Shown one piece after another: positions 3,624-53,154 of a DNA stretch of 64,000 bases. Below the pieces are notes generated by a model. It saw nothing but the letters and a program-made list of their open reading frames with translations, was not told the origin of the DNA and did not search any database. Origin of the DNA: Amphiscolops sp. MND2022 (Eukaryota); assembly GCA_964187785.1 (NCBI GenBank), contig OZ076409.1:28398001-28462000 (forward strand), given 5' to 3'. Positions within the stretch are counted from its first letter, which is position 1. The number at the start of each line of letters is the position of its first letter. Made by a program: the position numbers and the translations under genes.

Positions 3624-4207
3624 CTCGCGTTTAACATGCACGCAAAACGTATGAGAAGTTTAACTGATGCAAGTTAAGGTGGCGAGATATGCCAACCGGT
3701 AGGAAGTTTGAGACAACAAAGCTTATAGAGCGAATATATTTTCTTTTCAAAAAAGCTTTTCAACAATTTTCGGAAATTAACGGTCGTAACAGAAATTTCT
3801 CTAGGGAAGTAAATTACATGATATTCACAGCACTTTTTGTAACATCAATTCGCAAAACTCTCGAGACGTAAGGATACCATTTCGTAGGAATAATTTTGCT
3901 CTCGGTAATTTTTGAAGAAGTATTTCAAAAATTACCAGCCCTTTTCTTCGTACCAAAAATTTTTTTTCGTACCAAGAGACATAAGTTACATGAAAATTTG
4001 CAGCTCTGCTTGGCGCATTGCTTCTTATATTCCCCGAGACGAAAAAATCCCTTATTGAAGCCTTTTTGTCACTCAGAAAAATTTTAGCAGAAACTTTGCG
4101 AAGTTTTCTGAAATTAGACAGAACAATTGTTTTAAAACATCAGTTTTATGGAAACTCTGAGAGCTTCTTATTTCTTCGATTCATTATTACCTTCAATTGG
4201 CTGAAGG

Positions 4208-4820
4208 TGTCGCAGGCTGCCGCATGCAATGGAAACTTGTATTCTATCTCTTACAACAACTACAACACTCTCCCTCGGACGATCCCGCTTGACTAAGGAA
4301 AATAGACGTGCCGTCCAAAAAGAACTGCAAACTTTGAATCTGGAACATTAGTGCTTTCAATTTGTTTTTTAAAACATGCTTGTAAATCGAATATAGTGTT
4401 TTTTTTCACGCAAATATTTGATACATTTGAAGATAATTGAACACCAAGGCGTACAGGTAAAGGAAACGTGTTCAAACGTTTCTTCGCCTGTCGCTGCGGG
4501 TAGGGCGTCCACTATGCATTTTATCCAATCAGCGGCGTTCACTTGATTAATGCTATACTTGATTGAATAAAAGGCCAAGTACGGCCATTCTACTTTGCTA
4601 GCGTACCACAGAGGGCGGCGGGACACTAAGTCTCAATTTGGACTAAAGGCGCTGTTTAGTAAATACCGCATTATAATTGAGCAGTAAGTTTTGATTATTT
4701 GATGATTTATTCAATATGTGATTTGTCCTGAGAATGTACAAATACCCAATAGTCATGTAAAATTTTATATGAAAAAGACAATCACATAAATCATGTAAAA
4801 ATCATTAAATTATACCCGCT
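4208..4820 (+). repeat. 5' LTR remnant of copy 1 (U3 part only; a deletion joins it to mid-gag)
   Basis: Starts like the 3' LTR at 16324. Gag homology resumes abruptly at about 4821 without PBS or gag leader. Confidence 0.7.
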
Positions 4821-5578
4821 TATGCAGACATTCAGGAACATAAACTCAAACAACCGTCAAACCTAAGAGGACGTGTTGGTCATATTCCGGCGAAAATATG
4901 TTAGGCCGGAATCACAAGCTACGGCAAAGCATAAATGGCATAGGCTCTTTTTCGATCCTATTACCATGGAAATGCCCGATTTCTTAGAAGAACTGAAGCA
5001 AGGCACCGAGAAAGCCTTTGGTGAAAACGCAAAAAGCATTATTGACAGCTTGTTGTATGCTAAACTGCCTCCAAAGTTGAAACAATCTGTCAACATGGCC
5101 TGTCTGCAGAATGGGACATATGAAGAGATCGTAGCTCATCTTGAAAGAGAGCAAGAACTCAACGCATTGAGGAATCAGATAACCTACCAATTTCCACAAT
5201 GGCCTCAGCGTCCTCAAGTAGCCGCATCTTGTTGTCCAATGGCCTTGAAACCAAAAAGGATGCCCAGTGCTCTTACTGTAAAGCAACAGGCTATTTCCGG
5301 AAAAACTGTCCAACGTTGAAGAAGAAAGAAATGGAGGAGAAACGTGGCAAAAGACCGCAGCGTCAAACATACCCACCATGTGAAACGTGTGAGAAAAAGA
5401 ACCACCCAGATGAAAGATGTTGGCAAGGCGCTGGTGCTCATCTTTTCCCGAAATGACCCAACTTGACGATAAAGCAAATGATGCCTCAAGTGATAAGGGA
5501 AAATCCAAGAAAGCAAATAATGCTGAAATGTCATCGTCAGGCTAATCAAACTCAAAAAAGCCTGATTCAAAAAGCTAA
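4821..5578 (+). pseudogene. gag: gag remnant, copy 1
   Basis: FRRKYVRPESQATAKHKWHRLFFDP...YAKLPPKLK, homologous to copy 2. Two zinc-knuckle-like motifs, CSYCKATGYFRKNC and CETCEKKNHPDERC. Frameshifted. Confidence 0.85.
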
Positions 5579-8500
5579 TTTTGCCACGACTCCAAACACA
5601 TAACTACATGTTGGTCCGACAGTATGTCATATCAGATACTCCGACAATCAAACTTCGCTAATTTCTCAAAGACACAAATGGCACCCCCTCAGTTGTCTGG
5701 CAGCAACAGAAGGAAAAAGCCTATATGAAGACTTATAAAATAGTACATAACGATTGCCCAGGCTCATACTATGAAATGGACTATACTAAAGACTGTGAAA
5801 CTCAATTTAGCCCTTTACAATTGGTCGAAGATTATAACTCTCAAAACATTGACCCCGAGAACGGAAAAAATTTGTATTGGGGTGACAAACTATATGATCA
5901 GGAAAATGTACAATTTAGTCATGACGACTATCCTTCAACAGACGACGAGGACGATCCAGCGATAAAGACAAAAAACTATCCGGGGCCCTCCTTGAACTTT
6001 GGCAGCCAAATTCAGAAGCGAATACCCCGGAGGAAATAGAAAAGTTTCATAGACAAGAAGTGCGCCAGGCTACAAACAGCCTCGTAGACGAGGCGGCCTT
6101 TTTGCACGTCCTCGTCACTAAGGAGGGAGAACCAGCAAACATTCCCTTTTCAACAAACCTTGGTCCTCAATTTAAACGACAGATGCTATACTTCCCGATG
6201 GACTTTAGGGAATTAACCTTAGACGGCTTAATAGACACTGGCCGCACATTTGCACGTAAATGCGTGGATGAAACACACGTGTTCACGTGTGCAACTTGCA
6301 TTGAATGCAGTTTATACGTACTATGCACGGTAGAGCTCAGTAATGATAACTAATTATTTATTGAATCATTGTTTACTTTGACTGGTTTATGATGCTGTGG
6401 TATGAATTAGAATTAAAATGAACACTGAGTTTTGAATGCATATAAACATGGTGTAAGTTAGTCAAAACTTTGACCACATTCCACTTTTCGGAAGTATAGG
6501 AGTCCCTCAATTTGCAAAAAGTGGAAGTTAGTCAACGTTTTGACTGACTTACGAAAAAGAGTATTTTTGGACTAACTTCCGCTTTTTTCTAATTACGTGT
6601 TTTGACTAACTTACACAATTTTCCATTACGCGCGTTGATTTTGCTAAACCGTTGAAGCATAGACCGTCTTGACTAACTTACGCTGAATGACCATTTTACC
6701 ATTTTACTCAGATTACGCTGCTTGACTAAAGGCAGCTTACCGGTACGTGTATCGTAATGGCGCCCACTCCAGTGCAATACCCGAAGCAGACCTCAGGAAA
6801 AAACGCCTACTAGCGCCTCAATTCATAATCAAAGAGGGACCTGCCCCATTATTTCAAATAACGGTCGCAAATGGAGATTTAGAATCACCAAAGAGTACCG
6901 TCGAATTAATGTTTCAAATGAGAGACATTGAGTTTCATGAACGTTCTATAGTAATGGAGAAAATTTCCAGCCCCATAATTGAATAATGTTCCTTCAATTG
7001 AACCACACAGTCTTAGACCTGCGCCAAGGTCTCCTCAACTTTCCTTATTTCTCAATGCAACTGACCACGACCACAAGTACTCAAATGTAATGGAACCCCT
7101 ACTCAGTCCTGAGGACGTGACGATTCCACCAAATGACCACGCGGTCATTACCATACAATCCCAAATTTATGCAGAGAACGCAGTCACAGGAATATTACAA
7201 CCTAGTGACGTTTTGCACGAAGAAGGCGACGTAACATTTTGCGCCGCATTTGTCACACTAAACGAAGGGACTATGGGCATACGCGTCAACTATTTCATTG
7301 ACCAACCTTACAAACTTGAAAAAGGATTGCATTTCGCAACTTTCTAAGTGATGACTCCTGAGCAAATGGAACACGTCAGACCATCAGACCCAGTGTCTAC
7401 CTGGCACTTACTAATCGAAAACCTAGAGGACGCTGTCTACTATATCAGCAGTCTTTTCAAAGCGAATCGGAACATTGACCAATACGAGCATTATTGGATC
7501 CTGACACATATACAAAAACAGCTACTTAGAGAAATGCGCAACTTGGAAGAAGCGGAAAAACTGAATCCGAAGGACGACGAAAAATCACGTCGCAAGCTTC
7601 TTAGCAATTTTGACTGGAAGGACTCAGTGCTATAACAGCATGGAATCATAGGAATTGAATCGCTATTAGTAGAAATCCATGACACCTTTGCACGTCATTG
7701 ATTCGACATTGGAATAAGAATTCACTGTCAAACTGACCGCTAGGTATGATTCACCAGCATACAGTCAAAGCTTGCATTACCCGATTAACTTAGTGGAGGA
7801 CATATTGGTTGAACTGGCGTCACTACATAAATATGGCATCAATTCAACTCTGCCATTTTTTGAATACGCGAGCCCTATATTTGCGCAGAAAAAACCCAAT
7901 GGGAAACTCAGACTACTAGTAGATCTGAAAAAGATCAATAATCTTATCTCAAGACGATTATATCAATAGTAATCATCCAGTCAGTACCCTGACTGACGCC
8001 GCGCAACATATACCCGGAAAGACACTTTTCTGTGAACTCGACTGTTCACAGGCCTACCATTGACTTCAAATGGCGGACCAAAGGTCTAAAACAATGCTAG
8101 CATTTAAACTTGCAAGCAGGACTTTTGCCTATAGAAGATTGACTCAGGGACTCAGCAGAGCCCTATCGGCCTTCTCCAGTTTCCTGAGGAAATACCTCAA
8201 ACGAGTTATAAAAGCATATCAATGCGCCCAATATGTCGATGACATTGACATTGCAGCTAACGACGTCGACCAACTTTTTAGAAACTTGAGGGCGACCTTT
8301 CAATGCATCAGAGAAACAGGATTAAAACTAACGATGCACAAGTGCAATTTCGTAGCAACTGAAATTGATTTCTTGGGGGAAGGACTATCACCCCAGAGAG
8401 TGCCAAGCCCCCCCCCCCAAAAAAAAATTACGAACTTCTTGGAAAAACAATCTTCCCGAAATCCAAGAAGGCCTAGCAACGTTATCTTGGTCTCCTAAAC

Positions 8501-11060
8501 TACTACAGAAAGTGTATTCCGAGATTATCAGAAACACTGGTGCCATTCTTCCAACTCCTTAAAAAGGATGATAAAGTCCTAGTGACCACGGAGCTGGTAC
8601 AACAATTCAAGGAAATCAACTAAGACCTTGACAGGTGTAGCCAGCTAGCCTTAAAGCAACCATTGCCAAACAAAGAAGTGGTCTTGATGTCAGACGCGAG
8701 TTTTACGGCAGCCGGTTATGCCATTCTGATTGAAAAGGACCCGAATCAAAAGTTCTTTCTGCCAAAAATTCCTATGCGCACATAGCCTACATATGAAAAA
8801 TCTTCACTACTTCGCGGCTGAAAAAGTCGATATATGCAAAGAACTTTTAGCCAAATACTACTCCTTCTAGGAGTTTGGACATTATTTCTGGGAGACACCT
8901 AAACAGAGAATTATCCTTACAGACAATAACTCGGTCACGTGGTTCTTCGAGACGAAAATAATACCATCGCCATTCTGGAAAGCGTGTGATTACGTGATAC
9001 AATTCAGTTTTATCTTAGCGCACATTCCAGGGAAGAATAACACAGCGGCGGACTATATGACCCGTATGGAAATGAATCCCAACGAGAAATTGATCCTAAA
9101 AATAGGGGATGTTGAAACCAGACCCATCAAGGTATATGTCCAATCGGCCGGCGTGTCCTTGAAAGCAACTATTCTTAACTGAAGAGGGCAATGAAACAGA
9201 AGAACAAAATTGGAAGCGCAAGAAATTGTCCAAAGAGGGACATAAAGTCGATGAGACCGTAATACAAATTGATGCAATATCTGAAAACAATGTGGATGAA
9301 ATCAATAATTTCACCCAGAAACTGTGACGAACAAATCAGATACTGTTGGAGCAAGCTAGAAATCCAATTTTGCTCCAATTTAAAGCAAAAATCCAGAAAG
9401 AAGAGTATTCCGAAGAAATTCTCCAACATGAAATTCGGTACAATCAATATTTGAATAATCTTGACTGCACAGTCCTCAAGGACAAAATAATAACACGGCA
9501 ATACTATGATGAAACTGGTCAAATCAAATATCATCAAATACTACTGCCCAAGCACTTGCTGAAAGAATTGCTACACGCCCTTCATGGCACGGCACACAAA
9601 CACCCTGCCATATCTGGGAAGTTTCAGGAAATTCGCCAAAAATACTACTACCCAGGGATAGAAAAGCATGTCAAAAGAAGGGTAGTAAGCTGCAAATTTT
9701 GTGCTAAAGACAAACATGTCCCAAAGAACGCAAAAACGCCTGAATTGCTTAATTTGCTTGAAAGGGACAATGGTCCAGAAAATGCCATGCAAATAGATCT
9801 GCTACCAAATATACCTATCAGTGGCGGATACCAGTCAGTGATGATGGCAATTGATGTTTTTTCAAAATACTTGTTCGCTGACACGCTAATTGAGGCACAA
9901 GCCGCAAATGTAACCAAAGTGTTAAATGATATCATGACAAGGCATTCATACTTGCCAAAAACTCTCCTCACGGACTAAGGGTCTGCCTTTACTTCAACGA
10001 TTGTAGCAGAAATAACTCAAATTTTGGGCAAAACACTTAAATGCGCTACTACTAAACCACCGCAGACAATTGGCAAGTTGGAGAGGACGCATGCCTCTCT
10101 CGAAACGAATTTGAAATTTGCCGCAGGGGAATTTCGACGCCAATGGCACAAATACCTGCCATTAGCTGTGCTCAATTATAATACCACACATCACTCTGGC
10201 ATTGGATATGAGCCAAGCAAGGTATTTCATGGACGCATCCCCCACAACGTCCTGGACCATAAGTTAGGGAACAATCTATTAAAAACCCTGAGCCAACGAC
10301 TGAATTTGCGAAAGAAGTACAACAAAGGACGCAAATCCTTATTGAACAAACAAAGAAAAAGATTGTGCAGTCGTACCTAAAATACAAGGACTATTATGAC
10401 CGGAAAGCCAAAGTTGCTCCGCTTCAAAAAAAAGGATTTTCGTTTCATTCTACAATCTAAAACCGACAGCCAAGCACCAAAAATTCCATTTAGAGACTGT
10501 TGATTGGCCCTTTTGTCATCCACAGAGTCCTGTCAAAACGACAATTATATTGTGCGTCGGCTAAGTACTAAAAAAACGCAAATATTACACCGAATGAGAC
10601 TCAAAAAATTGGGCCTAACACGCCCTTACAGGCCAAATATTCCAGTAAAAATAACAATCTGACGATGAGATAGTAATACCGCAAGACGACTTGTAGACTA
10701 TTTCATGGTAAGTGGATTTTGATTACGAAAAAATTGACACAAGAAAAGACAATTGGCCGGATACGGCCTTATGCCTACCAAACGACGCCGCGAGCGGCGA
10801 AGTTGACGATTACGTCACCGAAGATGAACGCAGCAGCGAGAGGAATGAAAGTGATGTCACTGAAAATGAAATACGCACGAGACCGGCCAGCAGCCGAGAT
10901 GTGACGTCTCCGTTGATCGAACTGCCTGATACGGCTCAAGATGAAAATGACGTCACCAACGAATTAAAAGATGAGGAACTACCTTCAAAAGGAGGCGCAC
11001 ATATGTACATATCTTCGACCTAATTCTACCCCCAACTTGACTGATGAGAACATATACTAG
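5579..11060 (+). pseudogene. pol: pol remnant, copy 1 (protease, dUTPase-like segment, RT, RNase H, integrase)
   Basis: LIDTG|AHSS (split by an insertion); YASPIFAQKKPNGKLRLLVDL; CAQYVDD; LMSDAS; HGTAHKHP...CKFC; QIDL, LLTD, LERTH. Many stops and frameshifts. Confidence 0.92.
6243..6757. mobile_element. ~515-bp non-autonomous insertion in the protease active-site codons
   Basis: Splits GAC ACT GGC|GCC (DTG|A). TGGC is duplicated at 6239-6242 and 6758-6761. Internal GACTAACTTAC/GTAAGTTAGTC repeats occur in both orientations. TIRs unclear. Confidence 0.65.
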
Positions 11061-11140
11061 TCAGATATGTAATTTAAGGCCACATTAGTCCTTTTGACTG
11101 ACTGACTGACGTATCTTTTTATTGGGACTATTCTGACTAT

Positions 11141-14100
11141 TTATAAATAAAGAATTACTTCAACAAAGGACAAATTGTATAATATTTGACAGAGAAAAGC
11201 CAATGATGAAAGATGAAGGTACAAGTTTAAAGAACAATTGTACAAAATGTACATTTGGGACTTAGAAGTAGTCTGCTCGGACTCTTCCGGGACTTTATCC
11301 TTCTTTGCAGACTCTGTTGACCCAAAAGCAGTTTTCCGTTTCCCTTTCCCGGGGGACCACTTGTGTCGACTGCTGGTAGAGGGTGAACTTGAACCGGAGG
11401 CGAAACGACTCGAGGATGCTGCTTTAGGCTTCTGTGTCATGGATTTATGCTTTATGCAAAGGGTTCTGTAGAAATTGGCCTTGCCAAATACATCAACATG
11501 GGTCCAGGGATCACCTGCTACGTTACCAGAATTGAACTGTTCTTCTAGCTCACGAAATCTAGACAATGAACTCTCGTTAGTACAAACTGGAATGGAGTTT
11601 GGAACTCTAACCAAATAGAACTGTGCTGATAATATGACGTCTCCCTGCCTATGTGAATCAACATCTTGGAACTGAATGGAGGAAGCAAAGGGTTATCTTC
11701 AGTAAGGCACATGCAGCTTATTCGGAAAAGTCGGTAGAGATGGAGACGATTTCTGAGTTCAGGCATTGCCGACAATAGATCCACAATGTCGGTAAATCCT
11801 GCTGGGGAGTTTTTCAGGGAGGGATACATCTGGCGAGAGTGACCCACGAATTCCAGATACTAATCACGGCAGTCGTTTTTAGAAGATCCACCCAACCAAC
11901 CTCGGAGGCTGAAAATCTGGTATATTGTCGCGAAGCAAAATGTAGCTTGTTCTAAAGGTAGGATCAAGAGAATGTGGAGATCGAAACTGGCTATCACCCT
12001 GACGATGTCGGCATTTAAACTAATGTGGCCGAGCAAAAATACCATATAGCCCCGTGCCTTTGCAACGAACTTTTGTTTTGTGTCCTCAACCAATTCTGAA
12101 AAACTGGGAAATGAGCTTTCCCTGTCACTGTTGTCTCTCTTCACTTTGGCTGCCTCATCAATGTCCAATTTCAACCTCAATATGGTGAGCAAATCCCTCG
12201 AAGATAATTGACTAAGCAATCCATCGAACAGTCTAGATTTCCCACTAGGCTCTTCTCAAAACAAACGTTGTCTAAATAATGAAATGTTAACAATTAGAGA
12301 ATTCAACCTCTAGGTCCTTTGACGAAGTGGAACTCCTAGGAGAACCCTACTCAACCATGGAAATTGAAAGGAGATTTACTTACAATCAATAGTACACGAT
12401 CCTTCCAAAGAATTCCAATTTGATTGGGAAGAAGTCATCACTGATGATCTGCTACTCCTGGTTCTGAGGCTGAAAGGAAATAAGATTTGTCAATGGTTTT
12501 CAGGTCATGAGCATATAACGAACCATCTGGTAACAATACTGGTCAATGAAAATTCAATAACTTTGTTTTTAACCCCTTGCATCTCGTACCCATGTGCAAT
12601 CTTGGTGATGTGATCCCAGAAGGGCTTCCAATTAGTAATTATCTTGGAACAGATAATCGGTATGGTTCGAATCCGCAAGTCACAACTTGATATGACCTGG
12701 AAGCAACAATGACGTGGAACTGGTGTATAAGACACAACTAACTTCTAATCGTTGACACCAATACTAACTTTGGCTAGTTCAGGGGTATTACCGATTCAAG
12801 GCTCATCAAGAATATTGGCTAGATAGGCCACCAGGTACTTGAGTTGGATGTAGAAGTCTATCCGCCCAAACACGATTCCCTCACGTTTTAGCATACGCTT
12901 GTGTAGTGACAAGACTTTTTAGCCGAAAGGGTATGCAGTTTCCTTCTTCACCGAGCAGACTGCTCAACCGTCCGGAGGACTTCGTAATTGCACCCTGACA
13001 TACAGACAACCTGAGGTGCTGTCGAGAGGAAAGACAAGATTCTGGCTATCACAAGCAGCTGGTTTCGGACACGAATGGAGGCCAAGCTACAACGACAAAG
13101 TTGGAATTAGACAAGATCGTCTGATTTCCAGTAGCTCAAAGATGCGATGCCATGGCTCCCTTGTGGCTCAATTTCAAGAGAAATCAACACTGTCTCTTTC
13201 AGTGATTGGGCTACGTCTTCCATACCACGTAAGGAGACATGATGGAAGATAGCCTGAAACAGTTTAGATCCCTTAAAATCATGCAAAATCGAATGGTACA
13301 CAAAGGCTCACAGTCACCCTCACTTTAGCCTGGACTAGGAGCAATGGCCCGACAGGCCTCGGTCCAACTCTAGCTTCCCTTCTTTCGATGTCTATTTCTG
13401 TGGAAGGGGCATTGGTGTCCGAAACGTCACCTTGGTTAAAAGAAGATGCTCCGATTTCTTCATCGGACGCTAAGGCTCCGCTGGTGTACCCGTCAATGGT
13501 GTATCCTTCGCTCTCGGTTTCCCATTCAGAGTTTGTGGGGACGCCTCTAGTTGGATTTTCTCCCCTTATGAGAGTCTTTCTAAAATGGCCAGGTGTTTGA
13601 CCTCTTCCCCCATACACTGCCTGAAGAACAAGCGAACGCGTGCAAAGACAACTTGACAGTTTCGTCCGAAATGGTTTTGAGGACGGCGTGGATATGCGGT
13701 TCGCTGTATTCAATCGTGGAAGGTCCTCTGGGAAGCACGGTTGGGTAGACTTGAAAAAATGTTTCCGGAGAACGGTTCGGCCATTGGCAGAAAGTTGCTC
13801 TGGAAATTTGGTTTCTTTGGTTTGGGGGATGACATGGAAGCCCTTAACCCCTTTGTTGACAGCCTCACGCTCTTCTTCTGGAGCTGAAAAGAGGTCAGAA
13901 TCAGAATTCGCTATGCTGGAGGTTGGCCTGTTTGGCAAGCCATCGGCACAGGGGCTGCTATACAGGTCTTCTACCTCACTTGCATCGGTCTCAAAATAGT
14001 TCTTCTCTCGTTCGTGTGACCAATCAACAGGGCCCATATCAAACTGACTGGAGGTCCCCTATAACTCAGAACCGATTTATTGGGTATCAGTCCGACCAAA

Positions 14101-14434
14101 CTCAAGGATTTTCGACACTGATAAACTGTAAGGGCCAGGCTCAGTCCTGTCTTGTTGAGAAGCCTGATTAGTTGCGGGCACGAAAGTAATGTCATTCTAG
14201 GGACTAAGGCCGCCAAAGAACGCAACGTTTGGTCTGCATAAGCCGAGAGCCTCTCCTCAGCATTACCACTGCTAGAGGAAGGATTGGACGCAGGACGAAA
14301 AGCCGTGATCTGTTCTCTAGACTCAACTGGGTCCTCTTGTGAAGTTTCAGAAACTTCATCCATCGGTTGTGAATTTTCAGTCGGATGCTCTTCAGATGAC
14401 GTTTCTGAAGGAAAAGAAGAAAATTAGCGGACAA
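11141..14434 (-). pseudogene. Antisense, intron-containing cargo gene of copy 1 (hAT-transposase-like; BED region apparently deleted)
   Basis: ORF fragments 13279-14363, 13107-13253, 12505-12696, 11860-12219, 11545-11847 and 11141-11614 are colinear and homologous to 45864-46918 (-) and 58200-61000 (+). GT-AG introns at 13254-13311 and 12697-12768. Confidence 0.75.
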
Positions 14435-15587
14435 ACTTCCTTATTTTGAGATCCCATGTGCCGCTGTTAAAACTTCTGGAAATGAGATATATTAAAATCG
14501 AAACACGTGAAATATGTGTTTATTGGGCAGGAAGTACATGAACAGAAAGTGAGCCGTGATCAAGCCTATTTTTGTTTACATGAAATTGGGAAATCATCCA
14601 CCAGAAAAAGTTCGGGATAGCAACCAAGCAGATTGTGGAAAAACTGAGAAGTTGCAGAGCAGCGAAGTGTGAGGGCACGTACAGCTGGGGGAAAGTGCTT
14701 GACGCAAGGCAAGATGAATTGCCGGGACTGGAAGCCGACGGTGCACAGGAAACCGAAGGTACCCTTAGTATTGATGATGACTGCACGAGGTGTCCCAAAT
14801 AGTAAAGATGAAAGGAAAGATAGTTAAATATGGTTCAAAGACTAACTATCGACTAAATACAAGTGATGATTAAATACTGGATAATAAGAAAGAATTGAAA
14901 ATGGACAATTTGAATGACGAAATGGCAATGTGACAATATATCAAAATTGGATTTCGTGTCTTTACAGTTTGGTGTCAAATTTACAGTTATTTAAAATTCA
15001 CGCCGAAATGTTGATAGAGTTTGCCAGTAATATCTACATTACCCTATTTTATCTCAAAAACTTTGTTATTTCATACAATTATTTCATTACTTTTGTTATT
15101 ATTTCATTGTTTCACAGTCATATTATTTTGTTCCGTATGTGGAGTTTAACCCTTGGATGGCCATTCCGGAAAAGAAGAAACTTTGCTTCGATCTTATTGG
15201 ACGTTTCACGAGAAGCGAGACCGGGTGGCCTTCAACCATATCTTCACCTATTTGAGGATTTCAAGTAGCTATTGAGTGTTAATAAACACTCAGCGAAGTC
15301 CTCGATTCCGCCTTCAAGAAGCAAATACGATATTGAATGTCAACAATGACACGGCCGGCCGCCCATAAAGGGACTACGAGGATGTTGCTGAATATTTTAC
15401 CAAAAAGGGAAAGGAAAACCCGGAAAAAAGAAAAACGAAATTGGGTGAGTCTCCCGCGAATCTGAGCGAGGTAAACTGGCATTCACTCATTTTCGTTCCT
15501 ACCGTTCAGCTCACTACTTTTAACCTGAAATTCAAAATCTGCCCCGTACTTTCATTTCAAAATGTTGCGTAAAAAATACGAAGACGC

Positions 15588-16410
15588 ATGTCTGACTTGT
15601 CTGGATTTTTTCCAATGGACTTCGTGGGAGCCGCCCAATCTGAAAGAGAACCAGCCATCATTGACTTGTCAAGTGACTATGACGATCATATGGACTGTGT
15701 CAGCACGGACTGTGTCAGACTGTGTGTGATTTTTTCGTCAGACGAAGAATCAGAGAACATTGAGCTGATGGCCGGATGTGTAGAAAGACAACTAGCCGAT
15801 CCAATTCACATACCCACCACTGGGACAACAATGGCTCAAAAGAGGAGCGGAACACCTAGGCCAAACCAACCACCGTTCCCCACTTTTGACCGAAGGTATT
15901 TTAATCTCGGACGCGGAAACAGTTTATTAGCATTTGATAATAGGGTAAGGAATAACCACCCTTTTTACAATTGTCGCAACCTAATACCCCGAATGGATTC
16001 CCCGCTGTCTCCTTCTGTCGAAGATAGAAGACCAAACTACGGGTCAAGTGCGCCTAGTTGCTCCTACTCTACTGATACTGTCTCAGTGGAGTCAATCTCA
16101 AACTATTTCAATGGGATGGCTGTGTCAGAAACTCCGGCGCTGGTGAACTGTTCAGACTGTGTGGTCTGCGGAAAGTCAATCCACCAAATACAGTCGGAGG
16201 CGGTCGATGACTACTTAAACAAAACTGTGAATCCAGGCTAAACGTTGGCAGAACAGGAAGCAAGGAGAAGAGCCTTCTTGGATGGAATGTCCGCAGGGAC
16301 GTTGCTTCTCATGCCAGGTGGAGTGTCGCAGGCTGCCGCATGCGATGGAAAATGGTATTCTATCTCTTACAACAACTACAACACTCTCCTTGGGACAATC
16401 CTGCTTGGTG
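15588..16410 (+). pseudogene. ORF-X (unknown protein; acidic N-terminus, DCVVCG motif) running through the PPT into the 3' LTR
   Basis: ORFs 15588-16241 and 16245-16454 are separated by one in-frame stop. Homologous to 53083-53868 (-): DCxVC.G...QI...A...Y...RRR..L.GM..GT...P.GV.QA. Confidence 0.75.
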
Positions 16411-17263
16411 GGATTTCACTTTTGGTGGACAATCACTTTGAAGTCGACCCATAACCATGACGTCATTGTGGCTAAAAATAGTCGGTGCTATTTTTCGAAA
16501 ACCCTTCAGGCTATTTTCAGTAAATGACCCCAGTAAAATTGCTAGTCATGTAAACGCGGATATATAAACACCCGGGAACATAAGTCCCGACACAAATTGT
16601 TTAAACTACATACCGTCCAGTTAAACAACCGTTAAAAAGTTTTGATTTGCAAGACAAAGACTCAATTTGATTCTTCCCTCGTAACCATTTTTGATGCCTT
16701 CAACGAGGAGACAGGAAGCAAAAGCAAAGAGATCTAGTGAGATGGGCATGATGTATTATTTTGAGGACTTAGACGTGATGGTAGGGTGCGATAACAACAA
16801 TCAAATCGAAAGAGAATTTGAAGCTAGCGCTATTGAAGGATCGTCTGTTCAATATGACACTAAGTCTAACCTACCTGCAAGGGAAGATTTTTTCCAAGAA
16901 AATGAGTTTAGGAATCAGAACTATGGAAATAGTTTTCCCAGACATGAAAGCATTTTGGAATCGTTAGAAACTTTTGCAAATGAAGTTAACTTGAGATCAT
17001 CCCAGGAAATGGATTCTTCCATGCTGTCGATGGTAATTGCTCAGATCAATAGAGCCATATGTTCGGCTATATCAGATAGAGTCATTCCAGAAATACGTAA
17101 TATTGTGAGCTCAATGTCTTCATCAGGAAAGAGGGACACTGAGGCTGGCTCGTCCCCTAACAGCCAGGAAAATAGAGGAAGAATGGCTGGGTTGAAAACT
17201 AGAATTACAAAGAAGGACTCTATGTCTGTGATCTACGAGACACAGGAGACTTTGGTTATTACA
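16324..17263 (+). repeat. 3' LTR of copy 1 (internally deleted), with TATA (~16561) and gag-leader ORF from ATG 16694 (MPSTRRQEAK...)
   Basis: TG...CA termini. Start matches the 5' LTR at 4208. ORF 16691-17290 is homologous to the gag N-terminus of copy 2 (38642 onward). Confidence 0.88.
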
Positions 17264-18540
17264 AAAGGTATATGCCCTAATTCAATTTGAAACAAAATTC
17301 GTTCTCACAAAATTATTGAAGTGAAACGCGACTATACTAGTGACTTCCACACAAACATCCAAACTAGTTAAATAGTTCCTCAAAAATATGCGAAATCTTA
17401 AGGTGTCAGATTTTACCATTTGGCCCAAGGAACCTTTTGTGAGACTTTTTTTCGAAAATTGTTTTCTCACCAAAAGGGGCCTCTTCAATTTTTCGATGTT
17501 TTGCGAAAAAATGGATGTTGAAGAATCCCAAACGGTCCATTTCAGTTTTTTGGCATTTTAGACTTTGTTTCGAAACATTGTTAATGTCTTCAAAGGGTCC
17601 CCTTTCCAATTCAGTCACCTTTTCAGTTTTTATGGGTACTGTTCAGGCAAAACTGTTTTTTCTTATCGAAACTGAAACTTATCGAAATTGGAACTAGCTC
17701 GAAAAATTTAACGATTCTATTAAATTTCAACGCAGCTGCCTAAAATATTATTTCTAAATTTCACGGCAATTCAGATTCATTGAGTTTCACAGGCTTTAAT
17801 ATGCATTAATTCAGTTTTCCAATGTTGCTGAGACTTCATCAATTTTACCGCCATTTTAATTAATGCAAATAAATTTCAGTCACTTTATATATTTCAAAGA
17901 AACGTCAACCTCAGCGGGCGATTCAAATAATGGTTATTACATTAATTATTCATCAAAATGAAATTCTCCAAAGTTTTTCCGGACAGGCTCCCGGAATTTT
18001 CATGTTTTGTATAAAGTTAGCCTCGCACGCATGGAAGCAGCGTGAGAAACTTCCCAGCAAATTCAACTAAGTTTATTCAAGGTCACGAGTGACTGGATGT
18101 TATCTCTAGTTTCAATACGATTTTGTCTGTCAAATTTTTTTTCTATCATGCCGCTGCTAGTTTTTACGAGTTTTCTCAAGTCTCAACATTTGCAAGTTGA
18201 GAGATATAGGAACCCGATAACAATGATAGATCTGACTGTGAATATTTTGACGCCTTTTGGTTAATTTTTCACATTTTTGTTAAGTTAGAATTTCTCCGAA
18301 CTATATTATTCTAGAAACCTAACAGTTTTTTCCAGTTTTCTCTTTTTGGATCTTTATATCTTTCGGAAAACAGAAAGTGCGAAAAATGCAAAAAACTGCC
18401 AAAAAGCAAGATGTTCAAATGTTTCAAATGTTCAAAATGTTCAAATAAAAAAAACATTGCTAAGTAGATAAAATTTTCCTATTGCATCTCGTTGGATATT
18501 CACTCTCACGGAAACATCGAGCATTTGTACAAAAATTGAA

Positions 18541-24339: not shown

Positions 24340-26759
24340 CCCAGTGTTCTTAGTCATGAAACCCTTGCCATGATCATGGTAAATCTTGCTAAATCATGAT
24401 TAACCATGGTACCCTTGTCAAGATCATGGCAAACCATGATACATGGAACGCTTGTCAAGATCATGGCAAGATCTTGACAAGATAACCATGGTAAGCCATG
24501 AAAGCTGGTATTACTTGTGCATATTTTATTCTTTTCGCAAAAATTCCTCGTCGTCTGCAATTTCTGAATTAGCCATTGTAATAACTTCGGACATAACTTT
24601 TATTGATGGAAAATAGTTTTTTAATTGAAAATTATCCAAAACTTGCTCAATAATTTGCTGCACCTATTGACCGAGTTTTGTTACTTGAGAGCACGGCATT
24701 GCTACTACCATCATAAATTATCATACAAAGCAAACTCGGAATCAAGTTATTGCAACTTGCAGGTTGGCAAAATCGGTGTGAAAACCAACTTTTCTAGCTA
24801 TGATTTGTTTACAATTATGCAAATTATGCTATTACCTTATCTATTGAGGTAACGGTTTCTAATTACTGAAGTTCGATAATGCAGTAAAAAGTTATAATTG
24901 TCGGAGCAAAAACACTTTCCTATAATGTCTTCTTGAGTATCAGTTTTTCTTCTGTTTAACAGTAGGCATGTCTGTTCTTTGGTCCGAAAAAATCTCTAGA
25001 TACTAGTTACAATTTGGAAATGAGAGCTCTGAATTTTCCAAAAATTTCGCTAATGGTACCATGGAACCCTTGACAAGATCATGGTTAATCATTGTTAGCC
25101 TTTGCACGATCTTGCATGGCCATGGTATCCTTGCCACGATCATGGCAAAAACATTGCAAGATCTTGGCAAGGTGTCGTGGTATCCCCTACAGTCTAGGGT
25201 ATTTAGAGAACTATCTCTAGAAAGGGGTTGACTGTTAGAATTTATTTGAATTGTGTTTTGGGTATTTCCCCAAGCACCATGGTGCTTTCTACCTTCGGTG
25301 TTCTTGCTCAGTCTACTAGACCGTGAGTCCACATTTGTCCCTAACCCACCAACTAGACCTGACAATGAAGTTTGTAAAGGAGGAAGGATAGTTTCTTGAA
25401 TCGCAGAGCTTATTGAATCTGTAATTTGTGTGTTCAAATCTCTTTTAAGTTCATCTAATCTTCTCGACTTTTGCTGTGATAATTCAGTACCAATAAATCT
25501 GGACGTATCTATAGTTACTTCAATTTCAATCCTTTTTTCAGTGTTCAATAGTGATCTAAAGTCTTCCACAATTTCTAGCCTTGTCAGTCCTGGCCGAACG
25601 ATTTCCTGGATAATTACCCAGCATAACAATCATATCCTCTAAATCAGACATCACGTCCGAGGGCCTTTAGCGCTTTTCCTTAGCTTTCTGCTTTCTAGTT
25701 GAAGGCATTAGTAGAAGTACTTTTGGAGCAACAGGTAATTGTGGTTAATCTATATCAACGAACAGAACTGACTATTATCAACAACTAATGCAATTCCAAA
25801 ATTGCGTTTAACTGGTTGATTGGGACTGTAGGTCAAATGGAGTTTGTAACACTTGTCTATCAGAGATTCGTATCATAAGGTGCATAATCAATTGTAATCC
25901 CGTGGCCTAAGTGGCCCTTGTATAAATACTCGGGAGAGCATGACAAGCAGTTTTCCTAGTGTCATATTTCTAAAAATAGCATCGATTCAGGAGAAGTGTT
26001 CTTCAGGACCTTACGTCACAATTGCATCACTAAACTATGAATAGAAATAGTCCGGGTCATGGACGTGTCAACTATTGAGGGGGTTGTGAGGGCGGCACTC
26101 CTTTCAAGTCTGGTATTTGTGATTTACTTTTATTTACATAGGTAACAGCCAGTGAAAATATTACATGCACTTCATGTTAAGGACCGGTGGTCCAAATAAC
26201 TAATTGCGGAGAATGAAATTTGCACACTACTAGCACATAAAAGTGAATGCTTAGCGCTGATTGGATAATACAAGGGGGACTACGCGTCCGACTTCACTAA
26301 GCGAGGCGTCAACTCGAACGCGTGTCCTTTCAACTATACACTTGTTTACTATTGTATTCACAGCTAATTCAGCTAACATTGATTCTCTTACATTCTGGTT
26401 TACATGACAATAATACATCACTAACATGAAATGAATATACACTGCATTTTACATGTAAGATAGGGTGAGATGATTAATAGGGTTGGTCATACTTAGGTAA
26501 ACGGACCAGTAGTCTTTATGTTTGTAAAATGCATAGAAAATCAGTTTATAATTAGTAAGGGTTCAAAATAAGGGTTTGAATGTGGACCGGAAGTTCGTAA
26601 GGCCTACAGTGGCAAAACTCCTGGAGGTAGTACGTCATTTGATTGTTCGTTTGGGGTTACTTGATAATCATTTCCATCACAGGCGGTCGCCTGTGACACA
26701 AGGCTAGCAAGGAACTTGTTATGGATCTTGGCAAGGGTACCATGGCTTCGAACACTGGG
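24340..26759. mobile_element. CMC/EnSpm-type non-autonomous element (CCC...GGG ends, 2-bp TSD)
   Basis: TIRs CCCAGTGTTC...GAACACTGGG. Flanks GT/GC. Dense CATGG/GATCTTG subterminal repeats. Confidence 0.8.
25173..26698 (-). mobile_element. Solo LTR (1526 bp) of the same Gypsy family
   Basis: Minus strand TGTCACAGGCGACCGCCTGTGATGG...CCACGACA. Perfect TSD CAAGG. The ORF-X tail (VSQATACDG...PPGVLPL*) is at its 5' end. The gag leader MPSTRKQKAK starts at ATG 25708. Confidence 0.93.
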
Positions 26760-31402: not shown

Positions 31403-34400
31403 GGACCATGTGATCTATTCCCCCCCAGGTACACCTTGTTAGGAATTCCCCCCCCCCCCCAAACGAAAACGGCTTTTTCACAAGTATATTAAATATTGAA
31501 TGAATAAAACAAGTTGATATGCTTACAAATAAATGTAAATTTGTAGGTAAATTTAATGTAACCATTTTAATAACTGAATATTGCTTTGGGCGAAAAAACT
31601 TCCCGTGCGAATAGAAAAAATACTTTTGAATTTCGCACAATTTCCATTTTGACACTTCCAGCCAAAACCATCTTTGACTTTTTTATATCTGTCACAGACC
31701 GCTCCCGGTCTGGGTTGCCATTGCAGACGAGTGGGGATCGGAAGAGGCCATGGGTGCAGCCTGCGATTCCCAAATGGTGTTTCAATTACTAACTTGAAAA
31801 CTTTAAACCCTAATCTTAAATAAACTGTGACAGGAAATACGAAAACGTACGTCTAACTTGCGCAAAGTTTGAATGAAAATGAGAACAGAAACTAAAATGA
31901 GCCAAAATGATTTCATACACTTCCGGTAGAACGCCTTTATCACGTCGAAATAGAAACATTCGCCACCTGAAAGCTAAACTAAAATACGTTTAGAATAATG
32001 CTCATGCACTGATCTAAATATCCAAAAGGAAAACATCAATTTTGTCTCTGAGGAAAACATCAATCAGACCTAAAACAGAGATTACTTTGAGATGGCACGC
32101 CGAACTATTTATGCCTCTTCTGAGAAAAGGCAGCTTACTTGCACTTTGAACGGCAATTAATGTAAAATAGGACGATACCGCGTCGCTGAGTAAACAAATA
32201 TTGAAAGTACATGCAAATATTACTATAATTGTGACGTCAGCATTCCGTTAACTAGTTAACAAGGTAGAAAGTATTCCAATTCAGACGTCAGCGTGACGTC
32301 ACAGCTATGACAGCTAGCTAGATTTCATTCCTAATTTACGTCCTCGCTACGTCCACAATGCTAGACTAAGCCTAATATTAATACGTACGTCCGCATTACG
32401 TCCAATATCCAGCGAGACAAGATGCTTTAGTCCATCCAAAGGATGAAATAAATATTATTCAAATTATTCGGTACTAGGGATGCGTTTAAAGATCTTGGGA
32501 ATTTAACAAAACGAATAATAAAAGATTTCAGGATCAACGCTACATTTCAGCCAAACAAATTCCTTACCGGTTAAAAATTTCCCTAAATGCTTAATTTGAA
32601 ATGAAACCTTCTGTATAATATGCGCGAAAAGTCACAGTTTATGATCACTATGGAAATAGACTGAGTATTTTGTATTGAAAACATATTTTTACATGTTCGT
32701 GTTTCGCATTTTATACTACCCAATGTACAAGCGGCAGTTCATTTGATGCCCACTCAGACGATGGCCCGTCGTCCCCCATTTTCAAGACCAATCAGTTATA
32801 TGTCTAAAATTGTTGCATTGTTCATATGTATTATGTCATGAGTGATTAACCCTCGTTATTAAATGCGTTGTAATACTGAAGTTAAATGTTAAAGAGGTAT
32901 TTAAAGTTTTGTTCTTTTGGTTTGTTTGTAAAATATCGACGTCACGTCGACAATTGTTTCGAGTCCAATAATGTTGCTATACGTGCAAAAGAATATTTAA
33001 TGACAGTGTATGAATGTTGAATTAACGCCACAATGTCGCTAAATTAGTGTCTTTCAGTGAAAGTACCAATAACCGAATTTAAGGTGCTAAATCAGATAAT
33101 TTGGCTTTCCTATTCAATTGGCGCTTACGTTTCGCTATCCCTTTTTCATTAAATAATAATCACCCAGTTTAGAATTAATTTGGAAATTGTTGCTATTTCT
33201 ATAATCTCGCCTTTATTCTTTCCTAGCATCATCGGAAATTTCAGTGTTGAAAACATTAGTCATGGCTTTTTTCTCAAGTTAAAATTCAAAACCAAGTATT
33301 AGTTGTTCACGTCAGCGTCATCTCAGCGTCAATTTCTAACGAACCAAGCAGTAAAACGGGGAAGCATTTCCGGTTTGACAGACTGAAGTGATATCTACTT
33401 CCTGCTTGGGAGGAAATAAAAAGGACGCCGGGATGAAATGATATGATTATGCTTGATGACTAATATAGGATGAAGGTCATCGTGTCTGAAAAATTGACGA
33501 AAAGTCGACGTAAAATTGAGAACAAATGATTTTTCACCGAAAATACAGGAAATGACTAATTGTTCGAAGGTAATTAAGATTTTTAACTCGTGATCAAATG
33601 ATGCTAGGAGGGTATAGATACGATGATTTTAGTTGGCTGAGGGACTCAGTCTTTTGCAATTGTACAAATCAGTTGAATTCTCAATTTCGCTAAACTCTCA
33701 TTTTCACCTAACTCTGTTAGAAAGGATCTCTGAAAGAAATTCATTTCTTCAGGACAAGACTTTTCTACAACAAAATGTCAACAACAAGAAGCCAGAAAAG
33801 AAGGAATGATCAACAAGAAGGTGATAGAAACGTAAGTGAAGGTTTTGTTTCACCAATAGGATTAGAAATCCCTGTTCCTCAAACCAGGACGTAGAAGTAG
33901 CGGGCCCACCTAGATCAAAATCTCCTCGAATTGAAAATAGTTCCTTGGAGAATTTAAGGGCTTCTTTGAAAGAGGAAATAACTTCCAAAATCAAGAATCT
34001 TCTCATTGAGCCTCAGAAGGAGATGTTGAAGCTTCTAAAACCCGAAACAAGAGAGAATGCTAGAGATAACATCGATGAGGAAATGGAAAACGAAACTAGG
34101 AGTTTTTATACTCCGACAAGATCATTTAGAATAAAATCTACACAAAACGACCCGAATATATGTCGTAACAATATCTTGTCCAAAACAGACAATTTTTGCA
34201 GATGGGACGATTTAAACTTCGTGGCAAAAGACCCAAATTTTTTAAAGGCTGAATGCAAAGTTCGTAGTTTTGTATATATGGAAGTATGTCCGTTTGGAAG
34301 CACATTTCAAAGAATAATGATTGATTTTAACTGTCAATCAATGTATAAGATATGATTATGTCGACATCAATTATTTTATTGGACTAAAATTTCAACGCAA

Positions 34401-37290: not shown

Positions 37291-39226
37291 TGTTGCAGGC
37301 TGCCGCCTGTGATGGTACGTCCGTGACTAATTCTGCAATCGCGCACGAAATAATACCAGGCACTTTGCCTACCTTTTAAATACAAACTACCAAACTTTAA
37401 AAAAAAACTCATATTTGCTTGTTCTTTTTCCTATTTTTATTTACCCATACAATGTTTTATGCATTAATGGAATTGTAATTAGTCTGTTAAAGCAATACAC
37501 TTTGGAAATATCCAAATCAGGCGATTGAATGATGTAGGCTAGTTCAATGTAAAACTGCTGAGATAAATGCAATACAAATTAGAAGCAACTGTAAGGCAGT
37601 ATAGGAAATGTGTTCAAGTGACGTACAGTGCTAATCCGAAAGCGTCACTTGAGCACGTCGTCCTAGCCAATCCTATTGCAGTATTAGTTCTCTTTATTTC
37701 AAGTTATCAATAATGGCCGAGTAGGGCCAGTTGCGTAATATTGCCACTTACAATTGATACTTTAGTCAAAGAGCCGATTCTGGCCACCTTATGTGAAATG
37801 AAAGTAGGAAATCAACCGCCCATATATTTGACTAATAATTATGTACCTGTACCTTTTATGATAAATTATCTTTTGTTCAGTACTAGTATGCAGTTTTGAT
37901 GATTAATTGCCTGTTAGGTCCTTTTGACCATATTTTAATATTAATTGTTCTTTGTTAGGCCATTGGTTCTATTTTGACCAAAACATGTAAAACGCAGTGT
38001 ACTCTTTTATTTTTATTGACGTAAATTTTGTCCTAAACCTCTGAATGCATTGAACGCCTTGTAAATGATTCAGGACGTCTATCTCAGGCTGTTCTGATTA
38101 TTTTGCCTATACCCCATTGGAAATGCAATAATAGAATAATTGGCCAAATTGGGCCTACTTCCATGTTGTATTTTACATTTAACCGTATTTGATGTACTCA
38201 GTCCTGTGTTTTAGCGTTCACGTGGCGGCACGTGCCAGCAATGCATATTTAGTGTATTTGAAGATGAAGTGTTTACATTCCTGAAGCAGTCACACCCCAC
38301 CGGTGATACGTGTGGTACTTGACACTATAGTTTGAACTTTGATGCCGCCCTTGACGCTAGTTATTTTATAGCTCCAAAAAACTAAGATGCAGTTGAAATG
38401 ATCAGGAGTCACGTGTTGTGAAATTGTTTTGATGAATTTTACCCACTAGGAATGTGGTCATGTGCATTTTAAGGAATTTGTTATTTACATTGAGAATGGA
38501 TGTCATTCATGAGGAAATATATATAACCGCTATTTTCCTTGGGATGACACAGTTTTTTAATCCGCTTACTGCTCAATTCAACCTTAAAATATTGTTTTCG
38601 AGCTAAGACTAATTCACTGTTTTATCTCGAGTTCCCTTCAAATGCCTACTACAAGAAAGCAAAAAAAGCTAGAAAATCCAGAGGAATTGAGGTTCTCTCA
38701 GATAAGGAAAATCTAGACATCATACTTGAAGAAAATCATTTTAGTAGAAACGAAAGAGATGAAAGCCTAAACAGCATTCACGCTGGAAGGTCAGAAAGCG
38801 ATTTAGGCGATGAATGTGAAACGAATGATGAGAACAGGTTCTTAAATCGAAGAAATGTCGGTACTAGTATTGATGCCGAATATTGCCAAAATTCGGCTAG
38901 TGGCGATTCTAGTGCAGAGATCAACAGATTGTCGATTGAGTTGAACTCGAGGTTATCAAGAGAATTAAATGAAATTATGAGTAGTGTTATCACCCAGATG
39001 CAAAGGGCATTTAGTAATGCAATCTGTAGTCAAATATTGCCTCAGATTCAAACTGCCCTTAGCTCCAGGTCGGACCATTTGACACAAGGTAGATGGAACG
39101 TTCTGTCTGACAGACCGGAAGTGAACTCCGAAAGGTTCTCCGATGAGAAATATAGAGAAAACTCAAGAAGTAAGCCAATTCATGATCGTCTTAATGATGA
39201 ATCTATAAACACTTGTGCATACGACA
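37291..39226 (+). repeat. 5' LTR of copy 2 (1936 bp; TATA ~38518; gag ATG at 38642)
   Basis: Starts TGTTGCAGGCTGCCGCCTGTGATGG like the other LTRs. Ends GCATACGACA directly before the PBS. Confidence 0.85.
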
Positions 39227-51598: not shown

Positions 51599-53154
51599 TG
51601 TCGCGACTTTGTTCGCTTGTATAAGAGTCTACTGAACTCTCTCTTGACATCTGTTTACTATTTCACTGTGTAAAACAATTTTGGGTCAATTTTCCCACGT
51701 TTTCTTGGCATTTTCTGCTTCGGGGTTCCGTTGTAGCCCACTGTACCTTCTGTCCTCCACGGTGAAATTGGTCGTCCTTGGGCCTACATGTATCCCGTTG
51801 GACCCTCGGACCGCCATGGTAAAATTAGCTCTCCCCTGCATATCTAACGTGTTTTGAATAGAAGGAAGTACTGTTTCAGCTATTGCAGTTGTAGTTGCAC
51901 TTTGTATCTGAAAATTTAAGCTAGTTTTGATTTCATTAGGTCTCCTTGACAATGGGTTAGAAATTTCCTCGTTGATTATTCTAGTTGTTTCAAGAGTTAT
52001 TTCACTGTTTTCTCTACAATTGTTGAGTAGTGACCTAAAGTCTTCACCTGTTACATTTGAATTTTGTTGAGGCCTGCTTGACTGTGAGTCCGAATTTAGT
52101 TAGTTTTCACTTAGATAATTTCCCTCATTATTTCTTGAATACCTTCCTAACATTACATCAACATTTTCTACATCAGAACTCATGTCTAAATTGTCTTGGA
52201 CACCTTTCCTTAGCCTTTTGCTTTCTAGTAGAAGGCCTTGGAGAAATGATATCATGTCAAATATTGAATTCAAAAACGATAAGTACAAGTCAATGAGAAG
52301 GTTAAGTTAATCACAGTCTCGGATTCAACAGATTGATATTAGCAATTTGTTTGTAGGCAAATTCTTTTCAAAAGGATCCCCAGAGACCTCCAAGCCTCCT
52401 ATTTATAGTTGGGAGGAGATGAGAACGCCGAAATTGCGTGTCATGTTACTAAATACAAATATACCTGTGACTAAAAATAGCATCCCGTAGGGTTACATCA
52501 CCCTGACGTCATCACATCGAATAAAGGGGACTTTACGGTTAAGCCGACAAGGTGGGAAAACAGTTACAACACTTTATATGTATACCCAACACTAATCTAC
52601 AACACTACATGTGCACTAAAGATGAAATTTCATGCTAGCACAGTAAATAACCGTAGCGGACTTTAAGTTCGTGAAGCTACAATCATATATACTACCGGCG
52701 GCAGTCGCGTACTAATTCCACCGTGGCAGACATTCCGTCCACGGAGCTACATACATATACTGCGTTTTGATTGGTCAATAAAATTAGGACAGCGAGTACA
52801 ATTAGCTAGAAGATGCGTTCATTTGAAAACGTTTCCTCTTCCGCATCTAATTGCATTTAACTAATCATTCAATTTTACATTCGAATTATCGAATCACATC
52901 AAATTCCTAGCAAAGAAACAGGAACCTGACTATTTTCTAATCAGTTAAAAACAGCCCGATAATCTAAAATTAAAATTTGTATCGTGGCCGTATGGACCAT
53001 AGGTCTTTTACGGTGAAAATATAAAACAAGAACAATAACGATAAATTTACGTGTGGCACAATGTACTATTAGTCTTTCGTCGTCAAAATGGGTAGGACTC
53101 CGGGTGAGGGTTAGTAATATATCCTTCTAGCTGAGATTTGGTCAGCCTGCAACA
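51599..53154 (-). repeat. 3' LTR of copy 3 (1556 bp)
   Basis: Minus strand GGAG|TGTTGCAGGCTG...GTCGCGACA. TATAAATA at ~52400-52407. Decayed leader (M)PSTRKQKAKER...SSDVENVDVMLG from 52238. Confidence 0.85.

Follow-up and report, generated by a model that had tools for sequence, protein, structure and literature searches.

A conserved accessory gene of Ty3/gypsy retrotransposons in Amphiscolops sp. that reads into the U3 of the 3' LTR

The window, as we call the whole 64,000-nucleotide stretch of DNA analysed here, holds one decayed Ty3/gypsy LTR retrotransposon at 4208-17263, with a gag remnant, a pol remnant and a target-site duplication (TSD), together with LTR starts of related elements (Table 1). 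The reading frame under study, ORF-X, precedes the 3' LTR, and its last ~30 codons cross the purine tract into U3. The 5' LTR of the element has lost its remaining part, and the primer-binding site (PBS) as well as the start of gag are deleted with it; the 3' LTR has an internal deletion after 16407, followed by its last ~850 nt. The two LTRs share just 85 nt in a self-comparison because each carries a different, complementary deletion, and in genome copies both parts are combined in one ~1.5-kb LTR. The complementary deletions (4208-4822, 16324-17263) mask this LTR pair from repeat finders.

Table 1. Features of the window, in order of position; promoter, leader and motif entries are predictions
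Feature	Position	Strand	Remarks
Left TSD, GAAGG	4203..4207	+	right copy AAAGG, 4/5 bases match
5' LTR, first ~620 nt only	4208..4822	+	orphan ORF-X tail codons at 4207-4296
gag remnant	4823..5572	+	frameshifted
pol remnant, Ty3/gypsy	6180..10610	+	PR-(weak dUTPase)-RT-RH-IN order; Pfam RVT_1, Integrase_H2C2, rve; domain map
Antisense accessory gene remnants	11444..14423	-	BED-like zinc finger in open copies
Conserved non-coding block	15196..15459	+	11 copies and the window aligned; non-triplet indels
ATTGG (reverse CCAAT)	15196-15200	+	in the non-coding block
Palindrome GAGTGTT-AATA-AACACTC	15274-15291	+	conserved; contains AATAAA
TCTCCCGCG	15450-15458	+	contains TCCCGCG motif; upstream of predicted start site
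Predicted internal core promoter	15479..15512	+	Inr-like CA(+1)TT, A at 15481; CAG[TC] at +28
Leader, CAAA-ATH-GCN-AAR-AAR in other copies	15558..15587	+	degenerate, out of frame here
ORF-X, first ATG to LTR deletion	15588..16407	+	in-frame stop at 16239-16241
SIM-like motif IIDLSSDYDD	15657..15686	+	consensus from PMC8616421
Conserved core, DCxxCG and predicted helix-loop-helix	16155..16322	+	ends RRAFLxGMxxGT
Weak PPT (CCAGGTGGAG)	16314..16323	+	translated P-G-G-(V)
3' LTR	16324..17263	+	ends TTACA; nt 1-84 are ORF-X tail, including invariant CDG
Right TSD, AAAGG	17264..17268	+	
LTR start, divergent ORF-X family	26607..26698	-	tail only
LTR start, sister lineage	31690..31772	+	ORF-Y instead of ORF-X
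Start of second element's 5' LTR	37291..37380	+	relatives in its ORF-X group nearly without purine tract
Frameshifted ORF-X (group 2) into LTR at 53154	53087..53904	-	within 3.4-kb tandem duplication
Second copy of that ORF-X/LTR junction	56496..57313	-	frameshifted
Degenerate LTR start with ORF-X tail codons	60927..61001	-	absent from the earlier note's list

The LTR boundary was located by comparison with other copies. Among 40 non-self matches to window 4190-4830, 31 begin at query positions 14-20, where 19 corresponds to base 4208, and none begins before 14. Exact 5-bp TSDs flank TG...CA in five solo LTRs (L034, L042, L053, L059, L060), and TGGTGACA lies directly 3' of 5' LTRs. The first TG of the LTR therefore falls inside a Val codon, as an earlier note on this DNA had proposed; with a slash at the boundary, the junction reads GGA G/TG TCG CAG GCT at 16320-16332. 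That note had also listed LTRs opening with the same peptide, which holds at 4208, 26698 (minus strand), 37291 and 53154 (minus strand) but not at 31690, where L-S-Q-T-A-P-G opens an LTR of another lineage. The tail pattern P(G)xxP(L/I) that it described stands as a conserved hydrophobic PGxxPL tail, except that SPGVLPI at 53154 lies in a shifted frame. Every LTR carries the ORF-X tail, since the 3' LTR is, as is established, the template of both U3 copies.

The elements belong to Ty3/gypsy by their ~1.5-kb TG...CA LTRs, TGGTGACAGGAG PBS, 5-bp TSDs and PR-RT-RH-IN order with gag upstream, the RT tree having been built without reference clades. In each ORF-X group, the elements that were fetched repeat the gene order LTR-gag-pol-antisense gene-ORF-X-LTR. 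The position that the earlier note had called that of env is thus right as a 3' slot and loose otherwise, since the antisense gene and a predicted internal promoter lie between pol and ORF-X. The antisense gene is apparently spliced (L079:3940-5559 and 6623-7705, plus strand). A dUTPase match lies between protease and RT (L080:3-3632, minus strand, residues 169-251) and is below the cutoff at E=0.011. The N-terminus of Gag is encoded in the LTR (window 16691-17263; L080:4143-5834, minus strand), over ~180 codons in group 1; the Gag frame crosses the terminal CA/TGG and the PBS, so that the LTR is coding at both ends. Tandem duplications of 3.4 kb and 1.8 kb were found at window 52391-59209 and 46656-50189, and head-to-tail elements at L079/L080 and L220/L221, with ORF-X ahead of both LTRs.

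The ORF-X copy of the window is dead because of its in-frame stop and the deletion after 16407 in its 3' LTR, and only 3 of the 30 loci closest to it have kept the frame open. Protein searches of the genome with ORF-X gave at least 137-150 scored matches per query, mostly stop-free. From loci L001-L200 we collected 77 long CxxC frames and reduced them to 29 representatives under 90% identity; 21 of these have an open natural tail, and the other eight were left out as truncated or shifted. Selection was assessed in nine disjoint sister pairs, a tenth pair at 38% identity being excluded. The resulting omega values are 0.13 for the N-terminal half, 0.07 for the core and 0.10 for the LTR codons from 5 to the end. 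Codon periodicity at the LTR start, which the earlier note had set beforehand as the point to look at, is pronounced: in the LTR part of ORF-X the differences at the three codon positions number 22/14/90 (P=3e-18). The corresponding counts for the 120 nt 3' of the stop are 109/93/96, and gaps there are mostly non-triplet. The remaining five frames are interrupted by stops in all 21 open copies. ORF-X is thus shown to be a conserved protein-coding accessory gene of this Ty3/gypsy clade, its U3 part included in purifying selection.

The bases around the junction serve a DNA signal as well as the protein. Synonymous divergence (pS) is 0.053 at codons -3 to +4 and 0.50-0.66 on either side. At position -2, 11 copies have Gly and 10 have Arg; position 0 varies among Val, Met and Leu with the TG always kept. 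The PPT and ~17 nt of U3 therefore dictate the codons here, and the protein governs from codon +6. The earlier suggestion that the protein constrains the PPT and att sequence accordingly fails at the junction itself; it survives for the length of the tract, which the protein plausibly caps via the upstream Pro and hydrophobic codons. The tract is weak, as had been noted before: the purine run is GGAG in the window, 7-8 nt long in 20 of 21 open copies of groups 1 and 2, and two purines in each of the 19 group-3 copies parsed, which are near-identical and thus not independent. In group 3, the group of the element at 37291, 24 loci were examined, and ACACCCGCAG stands directly ahead of the LTR in all 19 parsed copies; one element has a perfect 5-bp TSD at this same ACACCCGCAG/TG boundary. 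This young family (L256-L279), and likewise L224/L225, has only AG as purines and no recognisable adjacent PPT. A polypurine tract of 8-49 nt adjoins the 3' LTR in LTR retrotransposons (PMC7264820). The hydrophobic codons ahead of the purine tract have a T content of 55%, compared with 19% in the core; a U-box is known upstream of PPTs (10.1101/2022.12.06.519325), and by analogy these codons could double as one. The pyrimidine-rich run and YAG just 5' of the purine tract and LTR, at window 16301-16323 and in homologues, resemble a splice acceptor; this resemblance may simply be a by-product of the hydrophobic codons and of where the purine run begins.

In all 54 motif-filtered proteins C128, P138, S140, P141, H172, C190 and C193 are invariant, as is the U3-encoded tail S-x-x-x-A-C251-D-G...T-x-P; a (T/S)PxSP motif is likewise invariant, and the core has a helix rich in Arg (RRR). 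The N-termini are basic and then acidic and do not look like signal peptides. AlphaFold gives a confident helix-loop-helix after the CxxC and little else (pLDDT 58, pTM 0.35; tail below 50). The maximum 19-residue hydropathy of the 54 proteins is 0.85-1.55, without a transmembrane (TM) segment, for which the KD19 threshold is ~1.6. Pfam gave no family at cutoff, and the ESM Atlas no usable match. The best hit of a sequence search against the PDB was a phosphatase (E 0.19), judged a chance match. With the low-confidence model as query, Foldseek found nothing at E<=0.001 among PDB and viral structures, and the best VIA-align hits (Z 5.2) were generic helical hairpins. Neither a recognisable DNA-binding fold nor a long classical nuclear localisation signal was seen. 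Four Cys and one His are invariant and widely spaced, with no RING match in Pfam, so a RING finger as in STUbL or ICP0-like ligases is not indicated.

A profile search of 1.84 billion proteins returned 365 at E<=0.001, and all 24 examined belong to the ORF-X family. Further protein searches found only unnamed ENA proteins without Pfam domains, none fused to a polyprotein; all 118 longer matches are stand-alone proteins of 193-363 aa. Two matches on short contigs are only 45-47% identical to this genome among the scored candidates, and therefore a second genome probably carries the family as well. In Pfam, PDB and protein searches there was no homology to a glycoprotein family, Gag or Env, nor a named homologue. 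The CxxC domain thus matches no known env or gag fragment, and the earlier reading of a non-Env accessory protein with a U3-encoded tail is borne out.

These results bear on the suspicion that the LTR peptide merely mirrors conserved att/U3 DNA, or that ORF-X is a degenerate fragment of Env or Gag. DNA-level fixation of codons -2 to +5 is real. From codon +6, however, synonymous sites are free to vary while residues are kept, and the stand-alone proteins without TM segment or Pfam family do not look like fragments. This explanation has next to no chance and is already refuted.

The acidic region near the N-terminus carries a SIM-like motif in which four residues, mostly aliphatic, precede S-S/D and acids. 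The SIM consensus is hhXh/hXhh with Ser and acidic flanks and is degenerate, and the motif resembles the SIMs of Daxx and PML (PMC8616421). Its strict form occurs in 15 of 23 representatives, compared with a mean of 0.15 and a maximum of 2 in shuffled sequences, which are a lenient control. This pattern and the Inr/DPE pattern below were both written after inspection of the sequences. Three of the eight representatives that lack it carry an acidic-then-hydrophobic motif of the DIEVIAC type.

Upstream of ORF-X, the conserved block at 15196..15459 likely represents upstream elements of an internal promoter; the TCCCGCG motif at its end is, we presume, E2F-like. A small sense ORF at ~14900-15290 is probably non-coding, as its frames break and its indels are non-triplet. 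An Inr-like motif with CAG[TC] at +28/+29 is present in 16 of 22 copies, where it sits 49-79 nt upstream, and in 1 of 146 control windows; the spacing rule of DPE elements is +28. In an additional group-3 set, the pattern matched only 6 of 14 leaders. These patterns suggest that ORF-X likely has an internal Inr/DPE-like promoter.

Translation probably begins ahead of the first ATG. There, 22 of the 29 representatives encode K-I-A-K-K with synonymous variation; these 22 leaders were chosen by that pattern, and the other seven are truncated, shifted or degenerate. Synonymous-only variation starts at the predicted start codon, which is ATT in 12 copies, ATA in five, ATC in three, and ACG and TTT in one each (n=22). 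In five of the 22, an in-frame stop lies four codons ahead of the Lys. In all 22, the distance from the predicted start to the closest ATG upstream is 82-366 nt (expected mean gap ~57), and no out-of-frame ATG intervenes between this start and the first Met. A purine occupies -3 in 22/22 copies, C occupies -4 in 17/22 and G occupies +4 in 20/22, positions that match near-cognate initiation (PMC9082881). ORF-X would thus probably start at a non-AUG codon, AUU, AUA or AUC, in a CAAA-NNN-G context. Splicing-in of a segment upstream of K-I-A-K-K is disfavoured, since 11 of 22 copies lack any YAG from the last in-frame stop up to the Ile codon, and in the others the offsets vary.

The lineage at 31690 has a 3' ORF without the CxxC domain. 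This ORF-Y (window 31690; L212, L213, L236-L255) is a second unnamed protein, of ~240 aa, in the slot of ORF-X. Its elements have the same PBS as ORF-X elements and still show traces of the antisense gene; the RT of L218 is 66-83% identical to other broken or open RTs, one badly shifted copy aside. ORF-Y carries SIM-like motifs of the LIDISS(S)E or LIDISSSEDE type. Its true ATG is preceded by AAA, AAG or AGA, a context as at the ORF-X start, and its U3 tail of 34 codons has the form CxC...HGC. The tail is under selection (differences 22/25/73, P=7e-10, six pairs), and 6 nt separate the purine run from the LTR. Homology between ORF-Y and ORF-X was not detected, with a single match at E=2e-4 to one of 80 ORF-X proteins and none in the reverse search. 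Within the ORF-X lineage, L080 and L229/L230 are 92% identical in RT, 35-37% in ORF-X, 34-35% in the LTR part of Gag and 32-42% in the antisense gene. ORF-X identity of 34-37% between elements with 92% in RT may reflect fast evolution or cassette exchange.

Coding into U3 is known from nef and sag, and foamy viruses and MMTV have internal promoters, that of foamy virus for tas/bet and that in MMTV env for sag (PMC12789967). ORF-X resembles the foamy-virus, MMTV and HIV nef systems in being a 3' accessory gene, in reading into U3 (as nef and sag do) and in having its own promoter near the 3' end (as in foamy virus and MMTV), the last point being only predicted for ORF-X. In contrast to these viruses, its host element is a Ty3/gypsy retrotransposon that lacks env; sequence similarity is absent, and fold searches with the low-confidence model gave nothing above background. 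MMTV Sag is a type II membrane protein, whereas ORF-X has no TM segment; a further difference is that the ORF-X frame runs across a minimal PPT, with a probable non-AUG start.

The plant LTR elements with Grande gene23, RIRE2 and Retand TRP28 carry additional conserved ORFs that lie after pol and ahead of the 3' LTR (PMC7264820, PMC11963269), and gene23 has its own promoter and a nuclear product of unknown function (PMC7264820). Those with their own promoter are antisense, while those in sense orientation resemble env and have TM segments, and the consulted parts of these accounts describe no read-through into U3 (PMC7264820, PMC11963269). The counterpart of the plant antisense ORFs is the antisense gene of our elements, not ORF-X. 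Among animal gypsy elements, CERV of C. elegans Cer1 (PMC10309623) and sORF1 of the Drosophila MDG1 group (PMC11952523) are non-Env nuclear accessory proteins; sORF1 has a short separate transcript and lies upstream of gag (PMC11952523), and CERV comes from a spliced mRNA (PMC10309623). Homology of ORF-X to either was not detected. Bdelloid LTR retrotransposons carry diverse, swappable non-Env ORF3s in the 3' slot (GDSL, DEDDy, env, TM, CC) and a dUTPase in pol (PMC5408684); the dUTPase-like insert here is below cutoff. The ORF3s have recognisable folds or TM segments (PMC5408684), and ORF-X matches none of them.

Our best guess, by analogy, is that ORF-X acts like the 3' accessory genes of foamy viruses, MMTV and lentiviruses, with homology to none of them detected. 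The U3-overlapping layout is already known from nef, sag and foamy virus, and plants, rotifers, flies and worms provide examples of additional 3' ORFs. A literature search by narrow phrase matching, which covered LTR retrotransposons with extra or LTR-overlapping ORFs, with non-AUG starts or without PPTs, found no description of the ORF-X family, its start or promoter, ORF-Y or the near-absent PPT.

We propose, with a probability of roughly 0.45, that ORF-X is a nuclear SUMO-binding anti-silencing regulator. The internal Inr/DPE-type promoter ~50-80 nt upstream, as its conservation suggests, would produce a subgenomic RNA ending in the 3' LTR. Initiation at AUU, AUA or AUC in strong context would add a basic leader of 6-19 residues, and leaky scanning would reach the downstream AUG too. 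The product, likely a low-abundance nuclear protein, is predicted to have an acidic, SP-rich and poorly ordered N-terminal half with a phospho-SIM-like motif, and its CxxC helix-hairpin core may bind zinc via the invariant His and Cys, one Cys being encoded in U3. In the least certain step, ORF-X would engage SUMO-dependent chromatin silencing factors at element loci and weaken repression. SUMO connects piRNA targeting to chromatin silencing (10.1101/533091), and SUMO defence is countered by viral SIM proteins (PMC3174244).

The main rival, which we consider unlikely, is a Tas/Tax-like sequence-specific transactivator of the element's own LTR or internal promoter, with the acidic N-terminal half as activation domain and the CxxC hairpin as DNA-binding or dimer domain. 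The layout is that of the foamy-virus internal promoter driving tas/bet (PMC12789967), the core has a basic RRR helix, and ORF-X, the antisense gene and the LTR co-diverge (32-42%, pol 74-92%) as a cognate factor-LTR pair might. However, in 22 copies the internal promoter and the LTR share nothing beyond chance (best exact match 9-14 nt versus ~10.5 in shuffled sequences), no DNA-binding fold was matched, and the antisense BED-like protein is a better DNA-binder candidate.

The remaining two readings are improbable. In one, ORF-X would be associated with particles or with integration (as a Vpr/Vpx-like adaptor, in nuclear import or as a target-site tether) or would put a brake on copy number; this would suit a small, predicted zinc/helical core and a conserved hydrophobic C-terminal PGxxPL tail fit for peptide docking, but the own promoter and weak start codon suggest a low-dose regulator, and no structural match to such proteins was found. 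A Rev/CERV-like factor licensing export or 3' processing of unspliced genomic RNA, to which we give, if anything, slightly less credence, has a precedent in CERV, which the animal gypsy element Cer1 encodes as a nuclear accessory protein dependent on phosphorylation (PMC10309623); the (T/S)PxSP motif and the Arg-rich helix of ORF-X agree with it. Here ORF-X has no homology to any named protein, and a SIM-like motif common to the unrelated ORF-Y favours SUMO over RNA.

The proposal of a SUMO-binding regulator can be extended, tentatively and with the odds against the whole, to the elements themselves. They would have complex retrovirus-like genomes with LTR coding at both ends and a 3' cassette, with Inr/DPE promoter and non-AUG start, for a SUMO-binding counter-silencing protein. 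The slot would be filled by non-homologous ORF-X or ORF-Y with a common SIM-like motif and a Cys-bearing U3 tail that locks the protein to the LTR type. One young family without a recognisable purine tract yet with normal integration ends would imply a non-canonical plus-strand primer.

The overlap of ORF-X with the LTR illustrates how one set of bases can serve both a protein and the PPT/att signal; the two-purine "PPT" family offers a natural test of RNase H's requirements for defining the plus-strand primer. In animal LTR retrotransposons, few accessory proteins have been assigned a function, and ORF-X is retained across many divergent families within a 1-Gb genome. The predicted transcription start site, predicted non-AUG start, SIM-like motif and candidate zinc ligands offer testable handles. 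Should ORF-X indeed counter silencing that depends on SUMO, it would be a case of an animal retrotransposon encoding a counter-defence.
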